From: Candidatus Limnocylindrales bacterium
GTDB taxonomy: Bacteria; Chloroflexota; Limnocylindria; Limnocylindrales; CSP1-4
Length of the DNA stretch: 64,000 bases
Direction: 5' to 3'
NCBI GenBank assembly: GCA_035699625.1
Contig: DASSPM010000159.1
Coordinates: forward strand, 11,203-75,202
Part shown: positions 27,626 through 49,690 of the stretch, piece by piece
Position numbering within the stretch: the stretch's first letter is position 1
Layout: each line of letters starts with the position of its first letter
Program-made: the position numbers and the translations under genes
The notes under the pieces: model-generated
What the model was told of the DNA's origin: nothing
Seen by the model: only the letters and a program-made list of their open reading frames with translations
Databases searched by the model: none

Positions 27626-27761
27626 GGATCCTCCCGAACGGCGCCTACGCTACACCGCCGCGCGGGACGGTTTCGAGCGACCGTCAGGCCGGCACGGACC
27701 GGCTTGCTACACTGCGGCGGCTCCGGCCGCCGATGGGGGCGGCCGTCTTCCGGAGGTCCCG

Positions 27762-33741: not shown

Positions 33742-35784
33742 CTAGCGCACGCGGGCGGCGGCCGGCCTCGCCGGGGCGGCCGTGAGCCAGGCGCGCAGAT
33801 CCTGCGCGATGCGGGGCGTGGCCGGTCCCGGCAGGTAATGGTCGGCGAGGAAGGCGCGGCGGGCCGTCTCGGTGATGGCGCCCGTGGCCAGGGCGTCCAG
33901 GCCGGCCAGGAGCTCTGCGCCGTCCCGGACCGGCAGCGCGACGCCGGCATCGACGTATCCCAGCAGGTCGCCCGACGCCTGGGTCGCCGCGATCAGGTTG
34001 CCTGTGCCCGCGGCGACGGCATCGGTGAGCACCGTGGAGTGGACGCCCAGGTGCGCATCTGCCGCGGCGAGGAGCTCATAGAGATCGATGCGCTGGACGA
34101 TGCTGATGGGCGGGGAACGGAAGCCGCGGGCCTGGGCGATGCCCTCGATAAGGCGACGGTACGGCCCCTCGTCCTTCTCGCCGGGGTGGAGCTTGACGAC
34201 GACGTGCACGCCCGGCAGCGGTCGATCGAAGACCGCGGCCAGCGCCGGCAGGAGGTGCAGCCGCCGGCCGCTGTCGCCGCTCGTTCCCGAGATGACCACC
34301 AGCCGGTCACCCTGGGCCACGCCGAGCGCGCGACGCAGCGCGGTGCGCCGCTCGTCCGCGGCTGTGGCTGCCCCCTGGTCGCGCGACCCGGCGAGGTCGA
34401 GGCGGGGTGAGCCGACCACACGCAGCTCCCCCTCGCGGTAGACGCTACGGGAGGTGAGCAGGCGCCGCTCGTAGTCACCGAAGAGGTAGAGCCGGTCGGG
34501 CAGCGGCAGCTCGGGTGCACGTGACGGATGGATGTAGCCGGCATGCCAGGGATGGATGATGCCGTGCTGCAGGGCGGCCACCGGCACGCCCGCCAGGCGT
34601 GCTGCGGCGACCCAGTCGGCGCGGCCATACTCGTTGACCAAGAGCAGCCCGGCGGGACGGCAGTCGGCCAGGAAGCGCACCGCGCGACGGATGAGGCGGA
34701 GGGTGCCGGGCAGGCTTCGTCGGGCCTCTGCCTCCAGCCGGCTGCTCAGCAGGGGCCCGAGGTCGACACCGGCGACCACGAGCGGCGTGTCGATGGCATG
34801 GAGGCGCTCGAGCACCGCGTCCGCGTCGGCCTGCGCCGCGGCGGCATCCTCCGGCCGGGCGTAGTGGAGCTGGACCTCGTCCTGGCCCACACTGGGGAAG
34901 GGCGACGCCTCGCGGTCCCCCTCATGCCGGGCGGCCAGCACGACCGCGGGTGCCAGCGACGTGCCATCCAGCGCCTCGAGCACGCTGCCGAGGAACGGGT
35001 CGCGGCGCCGTGGGCCATCGGTGCCGTCGATGACCTGGTGCACGCGCGGGTCGGTCAGGGCCAGCAGGCGACCGCGGCCGTGGGCCAGGAAGCGCTCGAG
35101 GCTGCGGCCGGCCTCGGCGCGTCGCCGGGCCCGCTCGGCCGCCGCCCGGTCGGCCGGGGACGGCCAGAGCCGACGCCGCAGACCGGCGAGCACGCCCCGC
35201 GACGCCGGGCGTGGCGGCGAGGCTGAGCCAGATGGAGCGGCGAGCGCGGGCGACTCCGGGCCCTTGAACGGCAGGCCGTCGCGCGCGGCGATGAGGCGCG
35301 CCATCTCGGCCAGCGCGTCGCCGGCGACCAGGCTGCCGTCGTCCGGCTCCTGGTCGGACTCCTGGTCCAGGCCGGCCGGCACCTCGATCGACGACGGCCG
35401 CACCCTTGCCACGAGATCGTCGAGCACGCCCAGCCAGCTGAGGCGTTCCTCGAGCCAGCGCCAGGCCCCGAGCCGGTGGCGGATCCAGTGCGTCGTGCCT
35501 CCGACGGACCAGCGCTCCTCGATGCGGGCGGCGGCGGCCCAGGCGTCGAGGAGCTCGCTGGTGCGACTGAAGACGTCCTCGCCTGCCAGCCGCAGCGTGA
35601 GCCAGGCCCGCGCAGGAGCGAGCCCGGGCGGGTCGTCGGGCCCCGGCGTCCAGGCGGTGTCGCCGACCAGCACGGCCGCCGCCGGGTCGGCCGACGCCTC
35701 GGCGCGGCCGCGCGTCGCGTCGGCCACGACGAGGAGCCGCCGGCCGCTGGGAAGCGGCTCCCGTGGCCCCGCCGGGTCAGCCAC
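33742..35784 (-). CDS. polysaccharide biosynthesis protein, KpsS/TagF-like GT-B C-terminal half with an uncharacterised N-terminal half
   Basis: GTG 35784 overlaps the stop of the upstream GT4 by 8 nt. The C-terminal VVVKLHPGEKD...IDLYELLAAADAHLGVHSTVLTDAVAAGTGNLI resembles capsule-synthesis or CDP-glycerol-transferase families. I matched the first roughly 400 aa to nothing. Confidence 0.7.
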   Translation of the reverse strand: MADPAGPREPLPSGRRLLVVADATRGRAEASADPAAAVLVGDTAWTPGPDDPPGLAPARAWLTLRLAGEDVFSRTSELLDAWAAAARIEERWSVGGTTHWIRHRLGAWRWLEERLSWLGVLDDLVARVRPSSIEVPAGLDQESDQEPDDGSLVAGDALAEMARLIAARDGLPFKGPESPALAAPSGSASPPRPASRGVLAGLRRRLWPSPADRAAAERARRRAEAGRSLERFLAHGRGRLLALTDPRVHQVIDGTDGPRRRDPFLGSVLEALDGTSLAPAVVLAARHEGDREASPFPSVGQDEVQLHYARPEDAAAAQADADAVLERLHAIDTPLVVAGVDLGPLLSSRLEAEARRSLPGTLRLIRRAVRFLADCRPAGLLLVNEYGRADWVAAARLAGVPVAALQHGIIHPWHAGYIHPSRAPELPLPDRLYLFGDYERRLLTSRSVYREGELRVVGSPRLDLAGSRDQGAATAADERRTALRRALGVAQGDRLVVISGTSGDSGRRLHLLPALAAVFDRPLPGVHVVVKLHPGEKDEGPYRRLIEGIAQARGFRSPPISIVQRIDLYELLAAADAHLGVHSTVLTDAVAAGTGNLIAATQASGDLLGYVDAGVALPVRDGAELLAGLDALATGAITETARRAFLADHYLPGPATPRIAQDLRAWLTAAPARPAAARVR

Positions 35785-37054
35785 GTGCGAGCCGATCGAC
35801 GAGTGCCACGTAGCGCGCCGCCTCCGCCGGCCACGAGAGCGCCGCCACGCGTTCGGCGGCGCGCTCAGCGAGCCGCTGGCGCAGGCCGGGCTCATCGGCC
35901 AGCCGGCGCACGGCGGCGGCCATGGAGGGTGCGTCCCCGGGTTCGTAGAAGAGGACCGCATCGGCGCCGAAGTAGCGCTCCACCGTCGGCAGGTGCGAGG
36001 CGATGGCCACCTTGCCCATCACGGCGTATTCGAAGAGCTTGGTCGAGAGGCTGAAGTCGGTGAATGCGTCCCGCCGGGTGGGCGCCAGGCCGACGTCCGA
36101 GCCGGCGATGCGCTCCGCCACCTCCTCGAGCGGGATGCGGCCGTGGAAGACGATCTGCTCGCCGACGCCGCGCGCGGCCGCCTGCGCCCGCAGGGCCTCG
36201 AGCGAGTCGCCCCGGCCGTAGACATCCAGCCGGACGGGGAACGGCAGAGGCTGTCCCCCTTCCGCGCCGTACACCAGGCGCGCCACGGCATCGACGGCCA
36301 CGTCGAGCTCGTAGACCGGGGTGACCGCTCCGGCGTACACGAGACGCAGCGTGCCGTCGGCCATGAACTGGCGCGCTTGGTGCGCCGACGGGTCGAAGTG
36401 GCGCAGGTCGGGCGCATTGAGCACGACCTCGACCTTGCGGGCCGGCACGCCCAGGCCACGCAGGCGGTCGGCGAGCGCATCGTTGACGGTGAGGACCTGG
36501 TCGGCCAGCCCGATGGAGGCCCGCTCGACCCAGCCCAGGAGGCGGTGGATCGGCTCGCTCGAGAGTCGCGGGAAACGGCTGCGGAAGAACTCGGGCATCG
36601 CCTCGTGCAGGTCGAGCAGGACGGGCACGCCGCCCGCGAGGCGCACCGGCAGGGCTGCCAGGACCAGGTAGTCGGGCAGCGTCGCCACCTGGACCAGGCC
36701 GTAGCGCCGCCGCGGATGGCGTTGCGCAAGGGCGAGCATGGCGCGCACGAGGAAGTCGAGGTACTCGCCGAAGTAGGTCACCAGGCCGGCACCCTGGTGG
36801 CGGCGCACCGGCAGGCGCAGGATGCGCACGCCGGCGACCATCTCCTCGGGCGCCTCGCCCTCGTTGCGCAGGGCGTAGACGTCCACCTCGCGACCGGTCG
36901 CGGCGAGGGCCTCGGCCTGGCGGCGCACGCGAGGGTCCTCGAGGTAGTAGGAGTGGGCGAGGATGGCGACCGGCCTCGGCCCGGCCTGCTTGCGGGAGCG
37001 CCTGCCCCCATGGCGGGGCGCCCTCGCCTCGTCAGACCTGGTCACCGGGGCCAT
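35777..37054 (-). CDS. glycosyltransferase family 4 (GT-B)
   Basis: ATG 37054 gives 425 aa. VAILAHSYYLEDPRVRRQAEAL...LVYAGAV...STKLFEYAVMGKVAIAS is a GT4-like EX7E region. The rest of ORF 35777-37813 is antisense to wzm. Confidence 0.82.
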   Translation of the reverse strand: MAPVTRSDEARAPRHGGRRSRKQAGPRPVAILAHSYYLEDPRVRRQAEALAATGREVDVYALRNEGEAPEEMVAGVRILRLPVRRHQGAGLVTYFGEYLDFLVRAMLALAQRHPRRRYGLVQVATLPDYLVLAALPVRLAGGVPVLLDLHEAMPEFFRSRFPRLSSEPIHRLLGWVERASIGLADQVLTVNDALADRLRGLGVPARKVEVVLNAPDLRHFDPSAHQARQFMADGTLRLVYAGAVTPVYELDVAVDAVARLVYGAEGGQPLPFPVRLDVYGRGDSLEALRAQAAARGVGEQIVFHGRIPLEEVAERIAGSDVGLAPTRRDAFTDFSLSTKLFEYAVMGKVAIASHLPTVERYFGADAVLFYEPGDAPSMAAAVRRLADEPGLRQRLAERAAERVAALSWPAEAARYVALVDRLARG

Positions 37055-37072: not shown

Positions 37073-37942
37073 ATGAGCATCCCCTCCTCGAAGGCCGTGG
37101 CGTCCGGCCGCCCCGGCGACCCGCGGCCGAGCCTCCTCGGCCTGGTGCGGGCCGGCCTGGACGACCTGCTGACGCGCCGGCGCCTTATCGGCTTCCTGGT
37201 CGGCGCCGACCTCAAGCGGACGCACGCCGACACCATCATCGGCCAGCTCTGGTGGGTCGTCGATCCACTCCTCCAGATGGTCGTCTATGCCGTGCTCGTG
37301 GGGGTCGTCTTCCAGCGCAGCACGCCCGACTTCCCGCTCTTCCTCTTCGCCGCCATCCTGCCCTGGAAGTGGTTCAGCACCACGCTCAGCGACGCAACCA
37401 TCTCGGTCACCAACCGCTCCAGCCTCATCCGCCAGGTGCCCTTCCCGAAGCTGGTGCTGCCGGCGGCCGCGACCCTCGCCGGCACGGTCAGCTTCGCCAT
37501 CGGCCTCGTGGCGCTGGGGGCGGTCTACCTCTTCTATCTGCACCGGCTCAGCCCGTGGCTGCTGACGCTGCCCCTGGTGGCCCTCGTCCAGCTCGTCTTC
37601 ACCTTCTCGTTGGCCGTCCTCTTCGCCGCGCTGAACGCCTTCTATCGCGACGTCCAGAACGTGCTCCGCCATGCCCTGCGACTCTGGTTCTACGTCTCGC
37701 CGACGCTCTACTCGCTGGAGCAGCTCGAGGATCACGGTGAGATCGGGCGCGTCCTTGCGCTCAATCCGATGGCGCCCATCCTGACCAGCTACCGGAGCAT
37801 CATCTGGGGTCACGAGGGCGCCGCCACACGCGCGCCCGAGTGGCTTGGGCTGGGGGCCGTGGTGGTCCTCTCGCTCGTGCTGCTGGCCGTGGCGCTGGCC
37901 GTCTTCAAGCGGGTCGAGCCCGGCTTCGCCAGGATCCTCTGA
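37073..37942 (+). CDS. ABC-2 type polysaccharide/teichoic-acid export permease (Wzm/TagG-like)
   Basis: 289 aa. LIGFLVGADLKRTHADTIIGQLWWVVDPLLQM... has 6 TM helices and is typical of ABC-2 exporters. The ATG at 37073 lies only 18 bp from the divergent GT4 start. Confidence 0.85.
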   Translation: MSIPSSKAVASGRPGDPRPSLLGLVRAGLDDLLTRRRLIGFLVGADLKRTHADTIIGQLWWVVDPLLQMVVYAVLVGVVFQRSTPDFPLFLFAAILPWKWFSTTLSDATISVTNRSSLIRQVPFPKLVLPAAATLAGTVSFAIGLVALGAVYLFYLHRLSPWLLTLPLVALVQLVFTFSLAVLFAALNAFYRDVQNVLRHALRLWFYVSPTLYSLEQLEDHGEIGRVLALNPMAPILTSYRSIIWGHEGAATRAPEWLGLGAVVVLSLVLLAVALAVFKRVEPGFARIL

Positions 37943-38757
37943 TGGACGACCCCGGCGCCCGGCCGGCCATCGATGTCCAGGACCTGGGCGTGCGCTACAA
38001 CCTCAGGCTCACGCGGCGCACCACGCTGAAGGGCTCCCTGGCCGGCCTGGTCCGCTCACGCGACCAGGGCGCGGCGACGCACTTCTGGGCGGTGCGCCAC
38101 CTGACCTTCCGAGTCGCTCACGGCGAGTCGTTGGCCGTCATCGGCCCCAACGGCGCGGGCAAGTCGACGCTGCTGCTGGCGCTGGCGGGCATCCTCCAAC
38201 CCAGCGAGGGGCGCGTCGTGCTCGACGGCCGGGTGTCGACGCTGCTCACGCTGGGCGCCGGCTTCGAGCAGGAGCTCTCCGGGCGCGACAACATCGACCT
38301 GGCGGCCGCCTTCCTCGGCCTGGACCACCGGCAGATGGCCGAGTTGACGCCGCGCATCATCGAGTTCGCCGAGATCGGGCCCTTCATCGATGCGCCGGTC
38401 AAGACCTATTCGAGCGGCATGAAGGCGCGCCTCGGCTTCGCCATCGCCACGGCCATCACGCCCGACATCCTGCTGCTCGACGAGGTCATCGGCACGGGCG
38501 ACCAGGTCTTCCGCGCACGCAGCCAGGCGCGCATCCGTGAGCTGGTGGCCCAGGCGCGGGCGATCGTGCTGGTGACCCACGACATGAGCTTCGTGACCGA
38601 GTTCTGCAACCGGGCCATCCTGCTCGAGAAGGGCACCATCATCCACGAGGGCGAGCCGGCCGAGACGGTCGAGCTCTACCGCGAGCGGGTGCGCCAGCAC
38701 AAGCTGTTGGCCGAGAGCGAGGCGCAGCGCTTCGCGACGATGCCCGGCCAGGGGTAG
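37942..38757 (+). CDS. polysaccharide/teichoic-acid export ATP-binding protein (Wzt/TagH-like, short form)
   Basis: The ATG overlaps the wzm TGA (TGATG). Walker A GPNGAGKST, signature YSSGMKARL and Walker B LLLDEV. At 271 aa it has no C-terminal carbohydrate-binding domain. Confidence 0.9.
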   Translation: MDDPGARPAIDVQDLGVRYNLRLTRRTTLKGSLAGLVRSRDQGAATHFWAVRHLTFRVAHGESLAVIGPNGAGKSTLLLALAGILQPSEGRVVLDGRVSTLLTLGAGFEQELSGRDNIDLAAAFLGLDHRQMAELTPRIIEFAEIGPFIDAPVKTYSSGMKARLGFAIATAITPDILLLDEVIGTGDQVFRARSQARIRELVAQARAIVLVTHDMSFVTEFCNRAILLEKGTIIHEGEPAETVELYRERVRQHKLLAESEAQRFATMPGQG

Positions 38758-38783: not shown

Positions 38784-40031
38784 TCAGCCCGGCGGCACCA
38801 GCCGGCCGTAGAGCGCCAGCAGCGTCCCGGCCTGGCGCTCCCAGCCGTAGCGCTCGCGGGCGGCACGCAGGCAGGCCTCCCGGTACGCTGCCCGTCGCTC
38901 CGGCGACGCATCCACGATGTCGCGGATGGCGCGCGCGATGTCCTGCGGGTCACTCGGATCGCAGAGCACGCCGCAGCCGGTCTGGCGCACGATGGCTGCC
39001 ATGCCGGGCAGATCGGAGGCGACCACCGGGGTGCCCGCGCCCATGGCGTCGAAGAGCTTGGTGGGCGTGTTGAGGCGGTGATTGAGCGTGCTGCCGCGAA
39101 CGGGCATGGCCGAGACGTCCGCCGCCGCCGTCCAGGCCGGGATCGCCTCGGGCGCCACGCCCGGCAGGAAGTGGATGCGCTCGGCGTGGGGCAACGAGGC
39201 CGCCAGCGCGCGGTAGTGCTCCAGGCCGCCGCCGACGCCGACCACCGCGAGCACCGCCCGCTCGACCAGCCCGATGGCCGCGAAGAGCTCCTCCAGGCCG
39301 CGGTGCGCCACGACCTGCCCGAGGTAGAGCACGACCCGCGTGTCGGGCGCGAGCCCGAGGGCTCGATGGAAGAGGGGCTCGGGCGGCTCGGGCCGCTGCC
39401 AGGCGGGCGGACAATTCATGACGATGGCCGCAGGCGGGCGGCCCAGGAAGCGCTCGAGCACGCGGGCGTACGGCTCGCTGACCGTGATCCAGGCATCGGC
39501 GCGCGCGACCCAGGCCCGCTCGCGACGGCGAAGGAGCTCCTTCCAGGGCGGCGGCAGGCGCGCGAAGCGGCCGCTCTCGACGTGCACGTCGCGCGAGTCA
39601 TAGACGACGCGGCCGCCCCGGACCCGCGCCAGGGCGAGCGCGACGGGCAGCGTCACCAGGCCCTCGGCCTGCCACAGGTCGCCGTCGGGCGCCGCGCGCT
39701 CGATGTCCCGGGCCCAGCGTCGCGTGAGGGCCAGGTAGCGCAGCGCCTGCAGGCCGCGCCCGAGGCTGTCGCGGACGTAGCCGGCCGGACCGCGCAGACC
39801 CGCCGCGGTCGGGTCCGGCAGCGGGGGCGCCGGCAGCCAGCGCGGGGCGGCGGGCTGGGGCACGCGCAGGACGCGGAAGCCGTCTCGCTCCTCGGTCACC
39901 GGCAGGTCGGGCCCGCCACGTGCCACGACCGTGACCGACCAGCCCGCGGCGCTGGCCGAGCGAGCGATCTTCCAGGAGCGCGAGTCGGTCAGGAACGGGT
40001 TGTTGAGCAGCAGCACCAGGCGCCGCGTCAC
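38784..40031 (-). CDS. glycosyltransferase, paralog D of a four-member tandem family
   Basis: GTG 40031 overlaps the upstream TGA (GTGA). Motifs shared with the paralogs: NNPFLTDSR..., VVYDSRDVHVE, NCPPAW and STLNHRLNTPTKLFDAMGAGTPVV. Confidence 0.82.
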   Translation of the reverse strand: MTRRLVLLLNNPFLTDSRSWKIARSASAAGWSVTVVARGGPDLPVTEERDGFRVLRVPQPAAPRWLPAPPLPDPTAAGLRGPAGYVRDSLGRGLQALRYLALTRRWARDIERAAPDGDLWQAEGLVTLPVALALARVRGGRVVYDSRDVHVESGRFARLPPPWKELLRRRERAWVARADAWITVSEPYARVLERFLGRPPAAIVMNCPPAWQRPEPPEPLFHRALGLAPDTRVVLYLGQVVAHRGLEELFAAIGLVERAVLAVVGVGGGLEHYRALAASLPHAERIHFLPGVAPEAIPAWTAAADVSAMPVRGSTLNHRLNTPTKLFDAMGAGTPVVASDLPGMAAIVRQTGCGVLCDPSDPQDIARAIRDIVDASPERRAAYREACLRAARERYGWERQAGTLLALYGRLVPPG

Positions 40032-41353
40032 CCCTGCCCCTCCCCCGCAGCCAGCCGCCGGTAGAGCTCCCGCAGGCCAGCCTGCTGCGCCTCCCAGGTG
40101 TAGCGCTCGAGCGCCACGCGCCGGCAGTGGGCGCGCAGCCGCTCCCGCTCGTAGGCGGGCGTGGCGAGCATGGCCCCGGCCGCCTCGGCGATGGCCCGCG
40201 GCGAGTCCACGTCGCAGCAACGGCCGACGGCCTCGGCCGTCACCAGGCGGCAGTGCTCGGTGCCTTCGGCCACCAGCACCGGCACGCCCGCCATCAGGCT
40301 CTCGAAGAGCTTGTTGGCGAGGTTGAGGCGCTGGTTGAGCGTGCGCGGCGGCTGGCCCACGAAGCAGAGGTCGGCCGAGGCGGTCCACTCGAGCAGTTCG
40401 CTCGGCGGCACGGCCTGCAACACGAAGAGGCGGCCGGGGCGCGCCGCCGCCTCGCGCAGCAGCGGCTCGCGCAGGCGCCCGTAGCCGAGCAGCACCACCA
40501 CCGCCCCCGTCTCCGCCAGGGCGGGCTCGTCGAGCGCCGCGACGAGCTCCTCGATGCCCCGGTCGACACTCAGGCCGCCCTGGTAGAGCACGATGGGCGC
40601 CTCGGGCGGGACGCCCACGGTGTCGCGCAGCCGCCTGCTCGCCGGCGGTCCGGGCTCGTCGGGGCGCCATGCCGGTGGGCAGTTGAGGAGGGTCACCGGC
40701 CGGGCGACGCCGAAGCGCCTCTCCACTTCCGCGGCGACCGCCTCGCTGACGGCCGTGAGTCCCGCCGCTTCGCGCACCCAGGCTGCCTCGCGGCCGCGGA
40801 CCAGGGCACGCACGGGAGCCGGCATCCGACCGAGTCGCGCCGCCTCGGTGTGGATGTCGGCGATGTCATAGACGAAGCCGCCGCCGGTGCGAGCGGCGGC
40901 CGCGCGGATGACCGGCAGGGCGATGAGTGCCTTGGCATGGAAGACCTGTGCGTCGGGCGCGGCCCGCACGACCGCGTCGGTCCAGGGCCCGACACGCCGG
41001 GCGTGGGCGGCGATCTCGACCAGCCGGCGCAGGGGCGCGCGCAGGCGGTCGGCGCCGTGCGCCGGGGCCGCCGGCAGCACGGTCGCCTCGGGCTCGAAGC
41101 CGAGTGCCCGGGCCAGTGCGCCGCGCACGCCGTCGGGCAGCGGCCGCAGGGCGCCGGCCACCGTCCGGTCGATGTCGACGCGCACGACACGGACCCCCTC
41201 GCGAAGCGTCTGCTCGACCGCCAGCCCGGGCGCGGCGAAGGCGACCACGGTCACCGCGTGCCCATCCGCGGCGAGCGCCGTGGCGGTGCGCAGCAGGCGT
41301 GAGTCGTGCTCGAAGGTGTTGGCAGCCACGATGGCCACGCGCAGCTCAGCCAC
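40028..41353 (-). CDS. glycosyltransferase, paralog C
   Basis: GTG 41353 overlaps the upstream stop by 8 nt. Motifs ANTFEHDSR, FVYDIADIHTE, NCPPAW and RTLNQRLNLANKLFESLMAGVPVL. Confidence 0.82.
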   Translation of the reverse strand: MAELRVAIVAANTFEHDSRLLRTATALAADGHAVTVVAFAAPGLAVEQTLREGVRVVRVDIDRTVAGALRPLPDGVRGALARALGFEPEATVLPAAPAHGADRLRAPLRRLVEIAAHARRVGPWTDAVVRAAPDAQVFHAKALIALPVIRAAAARTGGGFVYDIADIHTEAARLGRMPAPVRALVRGREAAWVREAAGLTAVSEAVAAEVERRFGVARPVTLLNCPPAWRPDEPGPPASRRLRDTVGVPPEAPIVLYQGGLSVDRGIEELVAALDEPALAETGAVVVLLGYGRLREPLLREAAARPGRLFVLQAVPPSELLEWTASADLCFVGQPPRTLNQRLNLANKLFESLMAGVPVLVAEGTEHCRLVTAEAVGRCCDVDSPRAIAEAAGAMLATPAYERERLRAHCRRVALERYTWEAQQAGLRELYRRLAAGEGQG

Positions 41354-42629
41354 GGCCGGGTACCAGGCGGTCGGCGAGCTCGAGATAGGCCGGCGCGTGC
41401 ACGTCCCAGGCATAGCGCTCGGCGACGAGGCGGCGGGCCCGCTCGCGGCGCGCGCGGCGCTCCGCCGGCGGCGTGTCGAGCAGGGCGGCCAGGGCGGCGG
41501 CGATGGCGACCGGGTCGTCGTGCGTGGCGGCGATCCCCAAACCATCGGGCTCGACCACCCGCCGGATGCCCTCGAGCTCCCGCCCGTAGACGATGGGCGT
41601 GCCGCCGGCCAGGCTCTCCCAGAGCTTGTTGGGCGTTGAGAGGCGCAGGTTGAGCGTGCTGCCCGGGCTGACGAAGATGGTCGCGTCGGCACCTGCGGCC
41701 CAGCGCGGCACGTCGGCGGGCGGGACCGGCGGCAGCGTCACGTGGCGCCCCGGCCGTGCCGCGTCGCGCCGCCGGAGCTCCTCCTCGAGCGGGCCGTAGC
41801 CGAGGGCGACGAAGGCCGCCGTCGGCAGGCGCAGCACGGCGTCGCCCGCCTCCAGCAGCCCCCGACCGGGCACGAACCGGCCCAGGAAGAGGACGATGGA
41901 CACCTCGCGCGGCAGGCCAGCGGCTTCGCGCAGCAGCGTCGTCTCGCCGGTCGGCAGCTCGTCGCGCGCCGGGCAGTTGTAGAGCACCAGCGGCGGGCGG
42001 CTGAGGCCCCAGCGGCCCAGCGCGTCGTCGGCCAGGGCGTCGTTGACGGTCGTCAGGCCATCCACGTCGCGCACGAGGCGCGCCTCGCGCCGCCGATAGA
42101 GGGCACGGCGCCAGGCCGGCAGGGAGGGGTAGCGGCTGGCCTCAAGGAAGATGTCGATCATGTCGTAGACGACGCGCCCGGCGGCGCCCTCGCGACGGGC
42201 GCGGCGCGCCAGGTCGCGTGCCGCCCAGGCCGCCCCGAGACCGCAGGCATGGTAGAGGTCGGCCGGTGGCAGGCTACGCAGCCCGTGGCTCCAGGCACGC
42301 GCGGCGAGCGGCCAGGCGGCGACCTGGGCCAGTGCCCCCGGCGTCGGCAGGCCGCCGCGGCGCGCCGCCCGCTCCAGGGGTCCGCGCCGCTCGTGCAGGA
42401 ACGCGGCCAGCGGGCCGGCCGGCGCCACGCGCCGCAGGGTCACGCCGGGCGTGCCGGCATCGTGCTCGACCTCGGGCAACCCCTCCCCGGCCAGGCCGAC
42501 GACGGAGACCTGCCAGCCCGCGCCGGCGAGCGAGCGAGCCACGCGGTCGGTGCGCGCGTACGCCCGCAGCGTCTTATGCGAGAGCACCACGGCGCGGCGC
42601 GCCGCCGGGCGATCGGGCGGTGCGGCCAC
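41346..42629 (-). CDS. glycosyltransferase, paralog B
   Basis: GTG 42629. Motifs VVYDMIDIFLE, YNCPA and STLNLRLSTPNKLWESLAGGTPIV. Its N-terminal motif is the most divergent of the four (SHKTLRAYARTDR). Confidence 0.82.
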   Translation of the reverse strand: MAAPPDRPAARRAVVLSHKTLRAYARTDRVARSLAGAGWQVSVVGLAGEGLPEVEHDAGTPGVTLRRVAPAGPLAAFLHERRGPLERAARRGGLPTPGALAQVAAWPLAARAWSHGLRSLPPADLYHACGLGAAWAARDLARRARREGAAGRVVYDMIDIFLEASRYPSLPAWRRALYRRREARLVRDVDGLTTVNDALADDALGRWGLSRPPLVLYNCPARDELPTGETTLLREAAGLPREVSIVLFLGRFVPGRGLLEAGDAVLRLPTAAFVALGYGPLEEELRRRDAARPGRHVTLPPVPPADVPRWAAGADATIFVSPGSTLNLRLSTPNKLWESLAGGTPIVYGRELEGIRRVVEPDGLGIAATHDDPVAIAAALAALLDTPPAERRARRERARRLVAERYAWDVHAPAYLELADRLVPGRG

Positions 42630-42633
42630 GGTC

Positions 42634-44094
42634 TCAGGCAGCCTCGGGCGCGAGCGGCGCCTGCGGGGCGGGCGCGGACGCTTCGCTGCCCAGCAGGCGC
42701 CGGTAGAGGTCGATCAGAGCGGCCGACTCGGTCTCCCAGTTGTAGCGCTCCAGCGCCGCCTGGCGGCAGCGGCGGCGGAGCTCGAGCCGCGCCTCCGGCG
42801 AGAGGCGCAGGATACGCGCGAAGGCGAGCGCCACGGAGCGCGTGTCGGACGGGTCGCAGACCTCGCCCACGCCGCTCTCGCGGACCACGCGCGCCATCTC
42901 AGGGAAGTCGCTCACGACCACCGGCACACCGGCGGCGAGGCTCTCCCAGAGCTTGTTGGGCGTGGCCAGGTAGTGGTTGAGGGTGCTGCGCTCGATGGGC
43001 GCGCCGGTCACGTCGGCCGAGGCGGTCCACTCGAGCAGCACGTCCGGCGATACCGCGTCGACCACGAAGACCCGGCCGGGTCGGGCACGTGCCTGCTCCT
43101 CGAGCCAGGCCCGCATCGCGCCGTAGCCGAGGAAGACTGCCACGGCGTCGGAGAGCTCCGGCTCGTCGAGCGCGCCGATGATGCGCTCGATGCCACGGTG
43201 GAGCGTGAAGGAGCCCTGGTAGAGCAGGATGGGGCGATCGGTCGCGATGGGCAGGCCGGCCGTCGTCCGGAAGTGGTCCCGCACCGGGGGCTCGGGTGAC
43301 GCCGGCAGCCAGCGGGGCGGGCAGTTGCGCACGACCACCGGCGCGGGAACGCCGTAGCGACGCACGAGCTCGCCGGCGATGGACTCGTTGACCGTGACCA
43401 CCCCGTCCACCCGTCGCAGCAGCGCCGCCTCCAGGCGGGCGGCGAGGCGGCGCGTGCGGGGCTGCATGGAGGCGGCGGCGCGGCCCGACTCGAGGTAGAG
43501 CTCGTGGCTGTCGTAGACGACCAGGCCGCCCGCCCGGCGCGCATGACGCACGGCGTGCGCCAGCACCGGCAGATCGTGGGCATGGTAGACGTCGGCCTTG
43601 GGGAGCAGGTCACGCCCGTGGCGATACCAGGCGTAGAGCTGCCAGGCGAGGCCCGTCCAGAAGGAGGTCCGCCGCAGGACGGCGTAGGCAAGGCGGTCCA
43701 GCCGGTACGCACCGATCTGGCCCAGCTCGCGCGGGCCGCGCTGCGCCAGGCGCCGGAGGCGCGCCAGAGCACGGTCCGTGACCGGCGCGTCCGCGGGCGC
43801 GCGCGACAGCCCCGGCCGGTCCAGGCTCGCTCGCAGCAGGGCCACGGCCGGCACGCGCCGGATGACGAAGCCATCGCGCGCTTCCTCGGCCGGCAGGCCG
43901 TGCGCGGCCCGCGCCACGATGGTCACCTCGCCGCCCGCCGTGGCAAGGCTGGCCGCCTCGCGCAACACGCGCGAGTCGGTGGTGCAGTCGTTGAAGACGA
44001 ACATGCACACCCGCCGCCCCTGGAGTGGCCGGTGGGCGATCGTGGCGTCGAGGCGCGTGGCGTCGGTGACCGCGGGGCCGCTGGGCGCCTCCAT
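42634..44094 (-). CDS. glycosyltransferase, paralog A
   Basis: ATG 44094 overlaps the epimerase TGA by 1 nt. Motifs FNDCTTDSR, VVYDSHELYLE, NCPPRW and STLNHYLATPNKLWESLAAGVPVV. Confidence 0.82.
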   Translation of the reverse strand: MEAPSGPAVTDATRLDATIAHRPLQGRRVCMFVFNDCTTDSRVLREAASLATAGGEVTIVARAAHGLPAEEARDGFVIRRVPAVALLRASLDRPGLSRAPADAPVTDRALARLRRLAQRGPRELGQIGAYRLDRLAYAVLRRTSFWTGLAWQLYAWYRHGRDLLPKADVYHAHDLPVLAHAVRHARRAGGLVVYDSHELYLESGRAAASMQPRTRRLAARLEAALLRRVDGVVTVNESIAGELVRRYGVPAPVVVRNCPPRWLPASPEPPVRDHFRTTAGLPIATDRPILLYQGSFTLHRGIERIIGALDEPELSDAVAVFLGYGAMRAWLEEQARARPGRVFVVDAVSPDVLLEWTASADVTGAPIERSTLNHYLATPNKLWESLAAGVPVVVSDFPEMARVVRESGVGEVCDPSDTRSVALAFARILRLSPEARLELRRRCRQAALERYNWETESAALIDLYRRLLGSEASAPAPQAPLAPEAA

Positions 44095-45272
44095 CAGCCC
44101 GCCAGCCAGTCGGTGACGGCGCCGGCCACGGCGCGCGCCACTCCGGCAGGCGCGACGGTGGCGCCCGCCGCTCGGCGGCGCGCCTCAGCGGCCGCCGAGT
44201 CGCCCGGTGCCAGCCGGCCAAGGGCCGCGCGCGCCCGCCCGCTGTCGCGGCCCACGAGGAGCGCTCGACCGCCCGAGGCGACGAGCGTCTCGGGCCACTC
44301 CGTCGTTTCGCGCAGCACCAGCGCCGGCACGCCCAGCCAGTGCGCCTCGCGCTGGACGCCGCCGGAGTCGGTCACCACGGCGGCGGCGTGGAGCTGCAGG
44401 GCGAGCGTGGTGCGGTAGCCCAGGGGTGGCAACAGGTGCACACCCGCAGGGACCACCGAACCGTGCTCGTCGATGACCCGCTTGGTGCCCGGGTGGAGCG
44501 CCAGCGCCACCGGTCGATCGAGCTCGCCCAGGAGGCGGAGCCACTCTGCCGTCGCAGCGGGCTCGCGGTTCTCGGCACGGTGCACCGTGGCGAAGAGGTA
44601 CTCGCCGGGTCGCAGGCTTAGCTCCCGCACCGCATCGGGCGCCGCCGCGCCGATGCTGTCTGGCTGGCGTACCTGGTCGATGGTCGCCGCCAGGAGGTCC
44701 TGCATCAGGTCGCCCACGACGACGATGCGCTGGCGGTGGTGCCGAGCCGAGCCGCTGTCCGCGTCCGCGCCGTCCGCGTCGGCCAGACGCTCCACGGCGA
44801 TGCCCTCCGCGCGCAGGTTGCGCGCCGCCTCGTCGCCGGTCACGAGCAACAGCCCCGAGAGGTGGTCGACCACGACGCGGTTGAGCTCCTCGGGCATGCG
44901 CCGGTCGTAGCTGCGCAGGCCGGCCTCGACGTGCGCCAGGGCCAGATCCAGCTTCGACGCCGCCAGCGCCCCGGCCAGGGTCGAGTTCGTGTCGCCGAAG
45001 ACGACCACCGCGTCGGGCCGCTCGTCGAGCAGCAGCGGCTCGAGCCGGTCGAGCATGGCCGCCGTCTGGCGCGCGTGGCTGCCGCTGCCCACGCCCAGCT
45101 CGTGGTCGGGCAGGGGCAGGCCCAGCTCCGCGAAGAAGGTGCCCGCCAGCTGTTCGTCGTAGTGCTGGCCCGTGTCCACCAGCACGGGCTGGTGCGCCTC
45201 GCGCAGGGCCGGCCAGGCCGCCGCCGCCTTGATCAGCTGGGGCCTGGTGCCGACGACACAGACGAGCTTCAC
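44094..45272 (-). CDS. wecB: UDP-N-acetylglucosamine-type 2-epimerase, non-hydrolysing (WecB/WbpI-like)
   Basis: VVGTRPQLIKAAA...DTGQHYD...GSGSHARQTA...VFGDTNSTLAGALAA...HVEAGLRS.D..MPEE.NR. Confidence 0.9.
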   Translation of the reverse strand: MKLVCVVGTRPQLIKAAAAWPALREAHQPVLVDTGQHYDEQLAGTFFAELGLPLPDHELGVGSGSHARQTAAMLDRLEPLLLDERPDAVVVFGDTNSTLAGALAASKLDLALAHVEAGLRSYDRRMPEELNRVVVDHLSGLLLVTGDEAARNLRAEGIAVERLADADGADADSGSARHHRQRIVVVGDLMQDLLAATIDQVRQPDSIGAAAPDAVRELSLRPGEYLFATVHRAENREPAATAEWLRLLGELDRPVALALHPGTKRVIDEHGSVVPAGVHLLPPLGYRTTLALQLHAAAVVTDSGGVQREAHWLGVPALVLRETTEWPETLVASGGRALLVGRDSGRARAALGRLAPGDSAAAEARRRAAGATVAPAGVARAVAGAVTDWLAG

Positions 45273-46702
45273 GCGCCCCCGCTCGACGAGCTCGCCGCGG
45301 CCAGGCGCCTGCCGTTGCGGGCGCCGCGTGCTCCCTCTCGCCCGTTCGGGAGGCCGACGCCGATGTAGCGCACGTCGTCGGGCCGCGGCACGTCGCGCAG
45401 GCCGTTGCGGCCGTCGTAGACGACGCGGAGTGCCGGGAAGCGGCCGTAGTCGATGGCCCGGTAGAGCGGATCGGCCGTCTGGAGCACGATGGCCACGGCG
45501 TCCGATCCGTCGCCCCAGGTGTAGGGCTCGGCGCCGAGGCGCCGGACCTCGTCGGCAGAGAGGAGCGGGTCGTGGGCGTGGACCTGGGCGCCGTGGAAGC
45601 GGAGTCGCTCGATGAGCGGCAGGGCGCGCGAGTAGGCCAGCTCCTTGACCCCCGCGCGATAGGTGAGCCCGAGCACGAGCACCGGCACTCCCTCCAGCGA
45701 GCCGAGCTCGCGCTGCAGCTCCTGCACGGCCAGCCCGACCTGGCCGTCGTTGACGCGGCGCGAGATGACCGGCAGCTGGAGCTCAGGCGCGCGGTGGATC
45801 AGGAAATGCGGGTAGACGGGGATGCAGTGGCCGCCGACGCCGATGCCGGGCTGGTGGATGTGCGAGAAGGGCTGGCTGTTGGCGCCGCGGATGACCTCCT
45901 CGACGTCGACGCCGACGCGTTCCGCGTAGCGCGCGAACTCGTTGGCCAGGGCGATGTTGACGTCGCGGTAGGTCGTCTCGGCCAGCTTGGCGAACTCGGC
46001 CGCCTCGGCCGACGAGAGTCGCCAGACCTCGGCCGGCAGCACGCTGCGGTAGAAGGCGACCGCCCGCTCGGCGCTGGCGGCGTCGACGCCGCCGACCAGC
46101 TTGGGGTAGGTGGCCAGGTCGCGGAAGACGCGCCCGGTGAAGACGCGCTCGGGACTGAAGGCGAGCAGGAAGCCGGCCTCCGCGTCGCCCAGGGTCAGGC
46201 CGCTGGCGGCCTCGAGGGCGGGTCCGAAGCGAGTGCGCGTGTCGCCCACCGGCAGGGTCGTCTCGTAGACCACCAGGCAGCCGGGGTGGAGGCCCTCCCC
46301 GACGGCCTGCGTCGCGCTGTCCAGCCAGCGGTAGTCGGGCAGCTGCTCATCGGAAAGCATGAGCGGCACGATCATGACCACCACGTCGGCGCGGCGCGCA
46401 GCCTCGGCATGGGAGAGCGTGGCCTCGAAGCGGCCCGCGGCGTGGGCCTCGGCGATGCGCTCCGCGAGCCCCGGCTCCTCGTCGACGTGGACCCGACCGG
46501 CGTTGAGCGTCTCGACCACGTCGGGCAGCACGTCCACCCCGATGACGTGCCAGCCGGACGCCGCGTACTGGGCCGCCAGGGGCAGCCCGATCTTGCCCAT
46601 ACCGACCACGGCCACCGTGCCGACCGTGCCCGGCTCGCCCCGCCAGGGCGACACGTGGCGGCGCGACTCGGTCGGAGCGCTGTCGGGCAGCGGCTGGGTC
46701 AT
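45269..46702 (-). CDS. UDP-sugar 6-dehydrogenase (UDP-GlcNAc/ManNAc dehydrogenase, WbpA/WecC-like)
   Basis: ATG 46702 (ATGA overlap) gives 477 aa. Rossmann motif VAVVGMGKIGLPLA and catalytic GIGVGGHCIPVYP. Confidence 0.88.
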   Translation of the reverse strand: MTQPLPDSAPTESRRHVSPWRGEPGTVGTVAVVGMGKIGLPLAAQYAASGWHVIGVDVLPDVVETLNAGRVHVDEEPGLAERIAEAHAAGRFEATLSHAEAARRADVVVMIVPLMLSDEQLPDYRWLDSATQAVGEGLHPGCLVVYETTLPVGDTRTRFGPALEAASGLTLGDAEAGFLLAFSPERVFTGRVFRDLATYPKLVGGVDAASAERAVAFYRSVLPAEVWRLSSAEAAEFAKLAETTYRDVNIALANEFARYAERVGVDVEEVIRGANSQPFSHIHQPGIGVGGHCIPVYPHFLIHRAPELQLPVISRRVNDGQVGLAVQELQRELGSLEGVPVLVLGLTYRAGVKELAYSRALPLIERLRFHGAQVHAHDPLLSADEVRRLGAEPYTWGDGSDAVAIVLQTADPLYRAIDYGRFPALRVVYDGRNGLRDVPRPDDVRYIGVGLPNGREGARGARNGRRLAAASSSSGGA

Positions 46703-47721
46703 CCGGGCACCTCCTCGAGGGCGACGTCGATGGGGCGGTGCTGCGTGGCCGACGCGAGCAGCAGGTTGGCCAGCACGACGGCCCACAGGCCGTCCTCGCC
46801 GCCCACCACGGGCGGGCTGCCGTCGCGCACGGCGGTGAAGAAGGCGTCGAGCTCGCGCCGCAGCGGCTCGGCCGGCTCGACCGGAAGGTGGACCGTCTCA
46901 CCGGCGAAGGTGGGCGCATAGCCGTCGAGGTAGGTCGGCGCCAGGTCGGCCGCGCCGCGCGTGAAGGTGAGCGACTGGGAGAGGTAGTCGGCCACGAACA
47001 TGCCCTCCTCGCCGAGCACGGTCACGCGGCGCTGCTTCTCCGGCGTCAGCCAGTTGACGTCGAGCGTGGCCAGGGTGCCGCCGGGGAAGGAGAGGAGGCC
47101 GTAGAGCAGGTCCTCGTGGGCGGTGTGGACGTGCTGCGTGGTCTCGGCGTAGACGCGGCTGGGACGCTCCCCAACCAGGTGGCAGATGACGTCCACGTCG
47201 TGCGTCGCCAGGTCGACGGCCACGCCCACGTCGCGGATGCGCTCCGGCAGGGGCCCACCGCGGACCGTCTTGACGCTGAAGATGCGCGACAGCGCGCCGC
47301 CGCGCAGCCGCTCCCCGAGGGCCAGCACGGCCGGGTTGAAGCGCTCGATATGGCCCGCCTGGAGGACCACGCCCGCGGCCCGTGCGGCGTCCACCAGCTC
47401 GCGCGCCTCGTCCACGGTCGCGGCCAGCGGCTTCTCCACGAGCACCGGCACGCCGCGCTCGATGGCCGCCAGCGCGACACGGTGGTGGAGTGTCGTGGGT
47501 ACGGCCACGATGAGTGCGTCGAGCTGCTCCTCCTCGAGCATCGCCAGCGGGTCGGCGAAGTCGCGCGCCGAGGAGGCCTGCTCGGCGGCCGTGATGCGCG
47601 CCGGCATGGAGGGATCGGCCAGCGCCACCAGCCGCACGTCGTCGCGGGCGACGAGGTTGCGCAGGTGGTTCCGGCCCATCGTGCCGAGGCCGGCCAGGCC
47701 GACGCGCAGGCGTGCGCTCAC
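46699..47721 (-). CDS. Gfo/Idh/MocA oxidoreductase (WbpB-like UDP-sugar 3-dehydrogenase candidate)
   Basis: VGLAGLGTMGRNHLRNL...VLVEKPLAATVDEAREL...GHIERFNPA. GTGA overlap with the aminotransferase gene. Confidence 0.85.
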   Translation of the reverse strand: MSARLRVGLAGLGTMGRNHLRNLVARDDVRLVALADPSMPARITAAEQASSARDFADPLAMLEEEQLDALIVAVPTTLHHRVALAAIERGVPVLVEKPLAATVDEARELVDAARAAGVVLQAGHIERFNPAVLALGERLRGGALSRIFSVKTVRGGPLPERIRDVGVAVDLATHDVDVICHLVGERPSRVYAETTQHVHTAHEDLLYGLLSFPGGTLATLDVNWLTPEKQRRVTVLGEEGMFVADYLSQSLTFTRGAADLAPTYLDGYAPTFAGETVHLPVEPAEPLRRELDAFFTAVRDGSPPVVGGEDGLWAVVLANLLLASATQHRPIDVALEEVPG

Positions 47722-48836
47722 GCCGGCCCCGCCTCCGAGCCGACGGCCTCGGCGAGCGGCGTGGCCACCTCGCGCACGGCGGCGATGATCGTCTCGAGCT
47801 CCTCCTCGGTCAGGTCCGGCCGCACCGGGATCGAGAGGACCTCCTCGGAGAGGCGTTCGGTGACGGGCAGCGAGACGTCGGCCGACTCGGGCGCGAGGCG
47901 CTTCAGATAGGGCTGGCGGTGCACCGGCACGGGGTAATAGATGAGCGTGCCGATGCCGCGCTCGGTGAGGCCCTCGACCACGCGTTCCCGCTCGCCGGGG
48001 AAGCGCATCGTGTACTGGTGCCAGACGTGCTCGCGGCCTTCCGGGACGCGCGGCGTGAGGTAGCCGCGCAGGCCCTCGCTGAGGCGGGCGGCGTTACGCC
48101 GGCGGCGCTCCGTGCGCTCGTCGAGCTGGGCCAGCCCGGCCATGCCCAGCGCCGCCGCAAGGTCCGTCGGCTTGAAGTTCGTGCCCAGCGCCTCGTGGTG
48201 GTAGCGCACGCGCATGCCGTGCGCGCGGTAGAGGCGCAGGCGATCGGCCAGTCCGTCGTCGTCGGTGGTGGCGAAGCCGCCCTCGCCGGTCATCAGGTTC
48301 TTGGTCGCGTAGAGGCTGAACATGGCCGGCCCGAAGCTGCCCGCGCGGCGGCCGCCGTAGGTCGCTCCGTGCGCCTGCGCGGCGTCCTCCAGCAGCAGCA
48401 GCCCGTGGCGCTGCGCGATCGCCGTGAGCGGCTCCATGTCGGCCATCAGGCCATACAGGTGGACCGGCATGATGGCCCGCGTGCGGGGCGTGATGGCGGC
48501 TTCCACGAGGGCGGGGTCGATGGTGAAGTCGTCCTCGCGGATGTCCACGAAGACCGGCCGCGCGCCGGTCTGCAGGATGACGCTGGCGGTCGCGTTGAAG
48601 GTGAAGGCAGGGCAGATGACCTCGTCGCCCGGGCTGATGTCGAGGCAGCGCAGGATGGCCTCCATGGCGACCGTCCCGTTGGCCATCAGCACGGCGTGGC
48701 GCACGCCGCAGTAGTCGGCCCAGGCCCGCTCGAACTCCTCCGTCCGGCGGCCCATGGCCAGCATCCCCGAGCGCAGCACCTCGAGCACGGCCTGCTCCTC
48801 GCGCGGGCCGATCTCGGGCCTCGAGATTGGGATCAT
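47718..48836 (-). CDS. DegT/DnrJ/EryC1/StrS-family sugar aminotransferase (WbpE-like)
   Basis: IPISRPEIGPREEQAVLEVLRSGMLAMG...NGTVAMEA...FSLYATKNLMTGEGG, which contains the PLP lysine context. Confidence 0.9.
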   Translation of the reverse strand: MIPISRPEIGPREEQAVLEVLRSGMLAMGRRTEEFERAWADYCGVRHAVLMANGTVAMEAILRCLDISPGDEVICPAFTFNATASVILQTGARPVFVDIREDDFTIDPALVEAAITPRTRAIMPVHLYGLMADMEPLTAIAQRHGLLLLEDAAQAHGATYGGRRAGSFGPAMFSLYATKNLMTGEGGFATTDDDGLADRLRLYRAHGMRVRYHHEALGTNFKPTDLAAALGMAGLAQLDERTERRRRNAARLSEGLRGYLTPRVPEGREHVWHQYTMRFPGERERVVEGLTERGIGTLIYYPVPVHRQPYLKRLAPESADVSLPVTERLSEEVLSIPVRPDLTEEELETIIAAVREVATPLAEAVGSEAGPA

Positions 48837-49525
48837 GCGCCGGCCTCGCCCGCCGCCAGGGCTGCCGCGTCAGCGGGCGCAGCGTTGCCGGGCCCGTCCG
48901 GCGCGACACGCTCGGCGGCCTCCTCGGAGACGACGGCATCGCCCGAGATGAGGAAGCGCCGACCGTCGCGCGGGCAGCGCCCGATGCCGTGTGCCTCGCC
49001 CGGCAGCGGCCGACCGTCGCCGTCGACGAGGCGCCGGCCGCAGTCGCAGACCCAGCCCATGCGGCGGGCCGGGTTGCCGGCCACCAGCGCGTGGTCGGGC
49101 ACGCTGCGCGTGACCACCGCGCCGGCCGCCACCAACGCGAAGCGACCGACGTCCGCTCCGGCCACGACGATCGCCCCGGCACCGACCGACGAGCCGTAGC
49201 GCAGCGTGATCGGGCTCAGCTCCCAGTCCGCATCGCGCGCCAGCTCGCCGTCCGGCGTGATGGAGCGCGGGAAGCGGTCGTTGGTGAGGATCGCGCCCGG
49301 CCCGATGAAGACGGCCGATTCCACGGTCACGCCGTGGTAGACGAGCGCGCCGTTCTGGATCTTGACCTTGTCGCCGACGTGCACTCCGGCATCGACGTAG
49401 GCGTCTTTGCCGATGATGCAGTCGTCGCCGATGACCGCCCCTTCGCGCACCTGCGCCCGGTTCCAGATGCTCGTCCCCTGGCCGATGCGCGCGTCCGGAG
49501 CGATGTCGGCGGAGGGATGGATCAC
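48833..49525 (-). CDS. hexapeptide-repeat N-acetyltransferase (WbpD-like) with a Cys/His-containing C-terminal extension
   Basis: GTG 49525 lies 10 nt after AAGGAG. The left-handed beta-helix repeats are IGQGTSIWNRAQVREGAVIGDDCIIGKDAYVDAGVHVGDKVKIQNGALV. The C-terminus carries WVCDCG...HGIGRC. Confidence 0.85.
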   Translation of the reverse strand: MIHPSADIAPDARIGQGTSIWNRAQVREGAVIGDDCIIGKDAYVDAGVHVGDKVKIQNGALVYHGVTVESAVFIGPGAILTNDRFPRSITPDGELARDADWELSPITLRYGSSVGAGAIVVAGADVGRFALVAAGAVVTRSVPDHALVAGNPARRMGWVCDCGRRLVDGDGRPLPGEAHGIGRCPRDGRRFLISGDAVVSEEAAERVAPDGPGNAAPADAAALAAGEAGA

Positions 49526-49690
49526 GAGTGTGGGACTCCTTCCGCGGCTGCGGCGGGAGTGTAGCGGAAAGGGTGCCCGGGTCAGCCCGGCCGGCAGGGG
49601 TCGTGCAGGCGACAGCACGCGCGCCCGGTTTCGGGGACCATAGGCGGCACGCCCGAACGGGCGGCACAGACTGCCCGTGACGGGGGACCC

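Follow-up and report, generated by a model that had tools for sequence, protein, structure and literature searches.

What is assembled by four glycosyltransferases encoded back to back, and what is meant by the unusual donor site that they share? This question is raised by positions 38784-44094 of the window analysed here, a stretch of 64,000 nucleotides (nt) from Candidatus Limnocylindrales bacterium (Chloroflexota; Limnocylindria; CSP1-4), assembly GCA_035699625.1, DASSPM010000159.1:11,203-75,202 of the forward strand. A first-pass annotation of this segment, made from the letters and a list of open reading frames (ORFs) alone, without database searches, had described four tandem paralogous GT-B glycosyltransferases (GTs) with a non-classical donor-site motif, which we call GT_A to GT_D. 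The observation is confirmed and its interpretation is partly supported. What the analysis shows is how the genes are arranged, that they are paralogous, which fold and motif their products have, and to which orthogroups and syntenic locus they belong. With a probability of roughly 0.6, the four proteins are anciently diverged paralogues that would act sequentially to build an exported, acidic glycan resembling teichuronic acid.

Four consecutive genes encode full-length paralogues

A frame plot of G+C content at third codon positions (GC3), combined with ORF and start analysis, identified four consecutive GT genes on the minus strand, with GC3 above 0.89 in the frames of all four:

42634..44094, minus strand: GT_D, 486 residues, orthogroup D of the PNKLFE-type GT4 subfamily (from GC3 frame, Pfam, AlphaFold2 and Foldseek)
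41346..42629, minus strand: GT_C, 427 residues, orthogroup C, the most divergent of the four
40028..41353, minus strand: GT_B, 441 residues, orthogroup B, start at GTG 41353 or 41338
38784..40031, minus strand: GT_A, 415 residues, orthogroup A

A GGAGG-like sequence lies upstream of GT_A, whose start overlaps the GT_B stop as GTGA. MAFFT aligned the four proteins over their whole length at 36-41% identity, and composition-corrected pairwise BLASTP gave 34-41% identity over 427-461 columns, with E-values from 1e-40 to 8e-78. Since 50 shuffles of each protein never scored above 26.6 bits, the paralogy is not compositional, as the first-pass annotation had allowed that it might be, and a compositional artefact was rejected. 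All sequence blocks listed in that annotation were found, with GT_C departing in two of them. Thus, the N-terminal block ..DSR...G..V(T/S)V has AYAR in place of DSR in GT_C; the central block VYDxxDxxxE is found in the four proteins; NCPP(A/R)W reads NCPARD in GT_C; and the C-terminal block (S/R)TLNxxLxxxxKL(F/W)(E/D)xxxxGxP occupies residues 314-335 of GT_A, 337-358 of GT_B, 324-345 of GT_C and 370-391 of GT_D. The invariant residues are all kept in the four copies. A scan of a genome collection returned 468 relatives, from which the best 80 loci, nearly all from Chloroflexota of the class Limnocylindria, were taken for comparison; the same blocks are conserved in 205 family members from these loci.

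An ordinary GT-B fold of the GT4 type

All four proteins were recognised above the gathering cut-offs by two Pfam models, Glycos_transf_1 (PF00534, cut-off 26.4; 78.4, 27.2, 33.5 and 58.0 bits for A, B, C and D) and Glyco_trans_1_4 (PF13692, cut-off 27; 78.5, 32.0, 42.2 and 49.4 bits). The N-terminal GT4 models Glyco_transf_4 and Glyco_trans_4_4 (PF13439/PF13579) scored 34.3 bits for A, 30.8 for B and 51.4 for D against 28.5; GT_C reached 26.3 and 24.2 bits, under the gathering thresholds. An AlphaFold2 model was built for GT_D on 118 sequences and had a predicted local distance difference test score (pLDDT) of 91.4 and a predicted template modelling score (pTM) of 0.88; GT_A, GT_B and GT_C align end to end with GT_D. 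The top 50 Foldseek matches of the model in the Protein Data Bank (PDB) were all GT-B enzymes, MshA (3c4q) being the best, and included sucrose-phosphate synthase (SPS), BshA, GlgM, PimA and WaaG at 12-19% identity. Matches to GT4/GT5 structures had E-values from 1e-20 to 1e-15 and template modelling scores to the target of 0.72-0.78. TagA-like and TarS-like folds, which had been put forward for comparison, are absent from these 50 matches and were rejected. From these results we concluded that GT_A-D are GT-B glycosyltransferases, as annotated, and that they are single-domain, nucleotide-sugar-dependent enzymes of the GT4 type with an ordinary fold.

Membership of an ordinary, well-characterised GT4 clade, the other outcome that the annotation had envisaged, was not found. 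No curated NCBIfam model came near its cut-off for any of the four proteins. The best matches, stp3 (TIGR04063, 40-71 bits against a cut-off of 442) and the WcaI family (NF007640, 28-59 bits against 276), extend over nearly the full length, but their scores exclude membership. A sequence search found no close PDB sequence to GT_A-D.

A variant motif occupies the donor site

In classical GT4 enzymes, the first Glu of the E-x7-E motif contacts the donor sugar and the second acid binds the ribose of the nucleotide. In the array, the corresponding segments are the following:

42922..42987, minus strand: variant donor-site motif of GT_D, STLNHYLATPNKLWESLAAGVP, residues 370-391
41595..41660, minus strand: motif of GT_C, STLNLRLSTPNKLWESLAGGTP
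40280..40345, minus strand: motif of GT_B, RTLNQRLNLANKLFESLMAGVP
39027..39092, minus strand: motif of GT_A, STLNHRLNTPTKLFDAMGAGTP

The first-pass annotation had placed this C-terminal block at the E-x7-E site, with the first Glu replaced by the TLN element. Three alignment methods agree on that placement: HMMER alignments to PimA and SPS, MAFFT with the canonical WcaL of E. coli and the window's own canonical GT4 (54663-55952), and hhalign against WcaL and WcaI. GT_A-D lack the first Glu, and Leu stands eight positions upstream of the second acid; in gapped alignments, the Ser/Thr of (S/R)TLN lies opposite the first Glu and is followed by an insertion of 5-6 residues. hhalign set the first Glu of WcaL opposite L376 and the second opposite E384 of GT_D. 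The second acid is kept, as Glu in GT_B, GT_C and GT_D and as Asp in GT_A and its core clade. In the GT_D model, the insertion forms a short helix (372-376) and the motif helix spans residues 380-387, with a pLDDT of 97-98.

We derived the motif signature W.ASADV..MP.QP.TLNHRL.TPNKLFEA.AAGVPVVASDLP, which is accompanied by DSR..R.A..L...G..VT, VYD..D...ES, NCP and LY.G.....RG. The motif pattern matched 184 of the 217 members screened; without exception these have K and G.P, and the second acid is E in 150 of them, D in 32 and Q in 2. Acid/His blocks of the N-domain (D..H.HD, YD.HE) are also conserved in the subfamily.

Comparison with solved enzymes (MshA 3c4q, SPS 6kih, BshA 3mbo, GlgM 6tvp and PimA 2gej) separates what is common from what is particular. 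These enzymes likewise have two Rossmann domains in a GT-B arrangement and Pfam GT4 domains, and both groups carry the G-x-P turn and the second acid. In contrast, GT_A-D lack the first Glu, carry the LNHRL insertion (5-6 residues) as an extra short helix, have a DSR motif for the N-terminal Gly-rich loop and contain a helical N-domain insertion of 60-80 residues. In the phosphate-binding K-G turn, the basic residue before Gly is Lys in PimA and an invariant Arg in the subfamily, and the preceding Arg of PimA (its "GR") is not conserved. WcaI, the colanic acid fucosyltransferase of E. coli, likewise lacks the first Glu, and its (L)PSKL corresponds to TPNKL of the subfamily. Unlike GT_A-D, it has Asn for the second acid, no TLNxR, a loop two residues shorter and another N-terminal motif.

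Four orthogroups and a variable array

GT_A-D fall in four separate clades both in a FastTree of 220 sequences and in an IQ-TREE of 64 sequences (LG+C20), with supports of 94-99 for A, 100 for B, 99-100 for C and 97-100 for D (FastTree 97-100; IQ-TREE approximate likelihood ratio test, SH-aLRT, 94-100). The identity of each copy to its orthologues in CSP1-4-like genomes is 54-70%, compared to 34-41% to its neighbours. The presence of these orthologues and of four orthogroups implies that the duplications predate the diversification of Limnocylindria. A recent tandem duplication is rejected by both trees, and duplication followed by neofunctionalisation, one of two readings suggested in the first-pass annotation, fits the four old orthogroups. 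The other suggestion, four enzymes for a tetrasaccharide repeat, is weakened, since in related genomes the locus is retained with as few as 2-3 copies. Across the conserved locus, copy number ranges from 2 (B-A) to 5, and the A-type is found in all related loci. B and A are naturally fused in one ORF at L012:2760-5648, and also in L011, with a linker of ∼20 residues; two-domain representatives of 859-895 residues occur elsewhere (P0121-P0123). Such fusions indicate that B-type and A-type enzymes probably act together.

The signature defines a large GT4 subfamily

A profile search of 1.8 billion representatives found 4,979 clusters at E<=1e-30, and K-L-F-E....G.P is kept in 136 of the 147 best representatives. 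Members occur in cultured Pseudomonas, Ruegeria, Thauera, Dechloromonas and Rhodoferax, on plasmids and on chromosomes. The two plasmid homologues that we aligned, from Ruegeria and P. frederiksbergensis, both keep the signature. The NCBI annotation pipeline (PGAP) names the proteobacterial members only "glycosyltransferase (family 4 protein)", and a search for a named relative among cluster members and relatives of the Pseudomonas homologue returned only generic glycosyltransferase names. Related PxKL variants without the first Glu are present in WcaI (AVLPSKLTN), which joins the family on a long branch only (FastTree), and in a fifth GT of the locus (35777-37054; FSLSTKLFEY). The motif is thus not special to the four proteins; it is the signature of a large, widespread and unnamed subfamily already filed as GT4.

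A distant member on a plasmid of Ruegeria sp. SCSIO 43209 (L082:4014-10199; 30% identity, motif MPNKLFE) has as neighbours a Gfo/Idh/MocA oxidoreductase, a formyltransferase, a DegT aminotransferase and a truncated 2-epimerase. This neighbourhood suggests a 3-formamido sugar pathway.

The array closes an operon with Wbp-type genes

GT_D-C-B-A occupy the final four positions in a string of nine minus-strand genes. Upstream of them lie, in order of transcription, genes for an acetyltransferase, an aminotransferase, a Gfo/Idh/MocA oxidoreductase, a 6-dehydrogenase and a 2-epimerase:

48833..49525, minus strand: WbpD-like hexapeptide N-acetyltransferase; start uncertain, GTG 49525 with GGAAGGAG upstream, alternative 49717
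47718..48836, minus strand: WbpE-like DegT aminotransferase; Pfam DegT_DnrJ_EryC1, 399 bits
46699..47721, minus strand: WbpB-like Gfo/Idh/MocA 3-dehydrogenase; best NCBIfam match UDP-GlcNAc 3-dehydrogenase, under its cut-off
45269..46702, minus strand: WbpA-like uridine diphosphate (UDP)-sugar 6-dehydrogenase; probable start ATG 46702, ATGA overlap, GAGGAGG upstream
44094..45272, minus strand: WbpI-like non-hydrolysing UDP-sugar 2-epimerase; Pfam Epimerase_2, 269 bits; TIGR00236, 220 against 210

The junctions of the nine genes are, in order, overlaps of 4, 4, 4, 4 and 1 nt, a gap of 4 nt, and overlaps of 8 and 4 nt. The 1-nt overlap joins the WbpI-like stop to the GT_D start (TGATG), GT_D and GT_C are separated by the 4-nt gap, and GT_C/GT_B and GT_B/GT_A overlap by 8 and 4 nt. 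Therefore, the five Wbp-type and the four GT genes form a translationally coupled operon. All five WbpD/E/B/A/I enzyme families are present together and coupled, and only the epimerase passes an equivalog cut-off. WbpD, E, B, A and I form the route to UDP-2,3-diacetamido-2,3-dideoxy-mannuronic acid (UDP-ManNAc3NAcA) known from the P. aeruginosa system. Judged from family membership, the five upstream products would constitute a route of this type, with predicted substrates.

The starts of the longest ORFs are probably wrong for two of these genes (45269-46786 for the WbpA-like and 48833-50029 for the WbpD-like gene). A start at GTG 49525 leaves room for a divergent gene of the alpha-amylase family from 49691.

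Further genes of the window that bear on the fate of the product are these:

37942..38757, plus strand: Wzt-like ATP-binding cassette (ABC) ATPase; Pfam ABC_tran
37073..37942, plus strand: Wzm-like ABC-2 permease; Pfam ABC2_membrane, convergent with the GT array
35777..37054, minus strand: fifth, more distant GT4-type transferase, without the first Glu
27498-29204: LytR-CpsA-Psr (LCP)-family protein, ∼10 kb from the array
54663-55952, minus strand: canonical E-x7-E GT4, ∼10 kb from the array
55952-56830, minus strand: GT2, ∼10 kb from the array

Synteny was counted in the 41 related loci of at least 15 kb (long loci). The Wbp module, 2-5 GTs, the ABC ATPase and the fifth GT form a synteny conserved across Limnocylindria. 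A full Wbp module adjoins the array in 25 of the 41, so that the co-occurrence with Wbp-type genes that the annotation had proposed to survey is strong within the class; 13 have only a WecB-type epimerase and/or a nucleoside diphosphate (NDP)-sugar dehydrogenase, and three have neither. The 13 loci may encode a UDP-ManNAcA-like route. The array has an ABC ATPase as its neighbour in 25 of these 41 loci. Neither Wzx nor Wzy was found within the 64-kb window.

Proposed function and alternatives

We propose that GT_A-D act in sequence on the cytoplasmic side of the membrane, extending a primer linked to polyprenyl phosphate that would come from a priming enzyme whose gene lies elsewhere. UDP-ManNAc3NAcA would serve at least one of the four as donor, and an acidic glycan resembling teichuronic acid would result. 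The convergent Wzm/Wzt pair could then export the finished chain, which would be anchored in the wall, perhaps through the LCP protein. Within the donor site, the loop and short helix, with the conserved Thr-Leu-Asn-His-Arg and the invariant Lys, may recognise the sugar part of the donor, while the kept second acid would bind the ribose. In this proposal donor, acceptor, product, export and the role of the loop are all predicted.

Known systems offer two points of comparison. In the B-band O antigen of P. aeruginosa O5, the same five enzyme families adjoin WbpH and WbpJ, which are annotated as GT4 and presumed to transfer di-N-acetylated mannuronic acid; that system differs in being a Wzx/Wzy-dependent, Gram-negative O-antigen. 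A precedent for a teichuronic-acid-like product in a monoderm is the Utr polymer of Streptomyces griseus, a wall polymer with the structure ->3)GalNAc-α(1->4)-ManNAc3NAcA-β(1-> made from a Wbp-type pathway (PMC13274773). As here, the Utr locus belongs to a monoderm of the Terrabacteria and sets a Wbp-type five-enzyme route beside glycosyltransferases. It differs in having TarS-like and TarM-like enzymes and in appending the polymer to wall teichoic acid (PMC13274773), whereas the present locus has four plus one GT4-type enzymes and Wzm/Wzt. The predicted ManNAc3NAcA transferase of S. griseus, UtrG, is a 440-residue MshA-like GT-B protein whose best fold match is MshA 3C4Q at ∼18% identity (PMC13274773); GT_D has the same best match.

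Several points weigh against the proposed function. No priming transferase was found within the 64-kb window, and the subfamily is experimentally uncharacterised. The TLN...K loop is placed in the donor pocket on the strength of alignment to solved GT4 enzymes, and its position there is accordingly a predicted one. Two members, P0133 and P0276 (loci L084 and L086), are encoded in loci of Wzy or Wzx type that have no Wbp genes, and for this reason a tie to diacetamido-uronic donors does not hold for the entire subfamily. The link to such donors is a property of the Limnocylindria locus; a donor site specific for uronic acids, considered as a property of the whole subfamily, is weakened by the same two loci. 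Finally, the linkage of ManNAc3NAcA in Pseudomonas and Bordetella glycans is β. GT4 enzymes are retaining, yet this sugar is β-linked in the Streptomyces polymer too (PMC13274773). To form a β linkage from a UDP-α donor, a transferase would have to invert.

This last point leads to the least improbable of the alternatives, which we regard as unlikely. The subfamily would be a mechanistically distinct, inverting GT4-like branch, in which the missing first Glu, the longer loop and the acid/His residues of the N-domain would allow β-ManNAc3NAcA-type linkages to be formed from UDP-α donors. The conserved N-domain acid/His blocks are consistent with it, and so is WcaI, which carries the PxKL variant and, according to the RefSeq product names of its locus, places α-L-fucose (α-L-Fuc). 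The donor of WcaI is guanosine diphosphate (GDP)-β-L-Fuc, so that its reaction would be a formal inversion. Together with the α-L-Fuc of WcaI, the β linkage of the Streptomyces polymer would fit an inverting branch of the GT4 fold, and UtrG, predicted to install the β-linked sugar, has MshA as its best PDB match (PMC13274773), as does GT_D. Against this, all solved relatives are retaining, WcaI sits on its long branch, UtrG is no more than a candidate member of the subfamily, and loss of a motif is by itself no proof of a changed mechanism. A literature search on WbpH/WbpJ as GT4, on the EX7E of WcaI and on inverting GT4/WbuB found nothing usable.

Improbable, in our judgement, is the alternative that GT_A-D are ordinary retaining GT4s whose altered motif has no special meaning. 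One or none of them would then use the Wbp product, and the others would add N-acetylglucosamine (GlcNAc), Glc or Gal to a heteropolymer, capsule or exopolysaccharide, or S-layer glycan. Recognition of the four by Pfam GT4 models agrees with this view, as do the members in unrelated Wzx/Wzy-type loci and the 16 of 41 long loci that have no full Wbp module. It is opposed by the tight translational coupling with the Wbp genes, by the 2-epimerase or 6-dehydrogenase that lies beside the array in 38 of the 41 long loci, and by the strong conservation of the signature in all four orthogroups. A recent tandem amplification, redundant or decayed copies, or a high-GC compositional artefact would suit the tandem layout, the 74% G+C of the window and the copy number of 2-5 between genomes, but is very improbable given the closer orthologues elsewhere (54-70% against 34-41%), the intact invariant residues, the shuffling control and the GC3 of the four frames.

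A bolder reading goes beyond the sequential assembly of a teichuronic-acid-like glycan that we favour. The PNKLFE subfamily would be mechanistically distinct, its Glu traded for a Thr-Leu-Asn-His-Arg...Lys loop that takes bulky or anionic N-acetylated donors, and possibly inverting, and the arrays would make a class-wide, undescribed poly-diacetamido-uronic-acid wall polymer in Limnocylindria. We consider it doubtful. A search of the literature on the Limnocylindria cell wall found no wall chemistry.

As it stands, the result is a refinement of annotation: the array belongs to a large, catalogued enzyme group and is not new in kind. A GT4 subfamily of very large size, which counts proteins of cultured Pseudomonas, Thauera and Ruegeria among its members and none that is characterised, thereby gains a defined signature and four orthogroups. 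In Limnocylindria, a soil class that is abundant and uncultured, the subfamily is linked to a conserved locus predicted to make a glycan of di-N-acetylated uronic acid. Should donor choice or stereochemistry be set by the variant loop, the loop would aid the prediction of glycan structures from genomes and could address how β-ManNAc3NAcA linkages are made by enzymes filed as retaining.

Other observations on the locus and its relatives

An alternative type of locus is seen at L004:2129-10394, and similarly in L003 and L016. There, the B-A pair is followed by a 640-residue stp3-like GT (276 bits to TIGR04063) and then by a nucleotide-sugar dehydrogenase and a WecB-type epimerase, without WbpB, WbpE and WbpD. 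This arrangement suggests a variant polymer based on UDP-ManNAcA. Orthologues of the canonical GT4 at 54663-55952 (48-67% identity) immediately precede the B-A pair in many related loci. The fifth GT has the N-terminal motif YxxEDPRVRRxAEAL and belongs to a separate conserved clade, members of which accompany the array in many loci of Limnocylindria. Lastly, an ORF on the minus strand at 33742-35961, of 650-739 residues and with good GC3, encodes a product with no Pfam match and no PDB sequence match; its homologues are found at 42-46% identity in L052, L053, L062 and L075.

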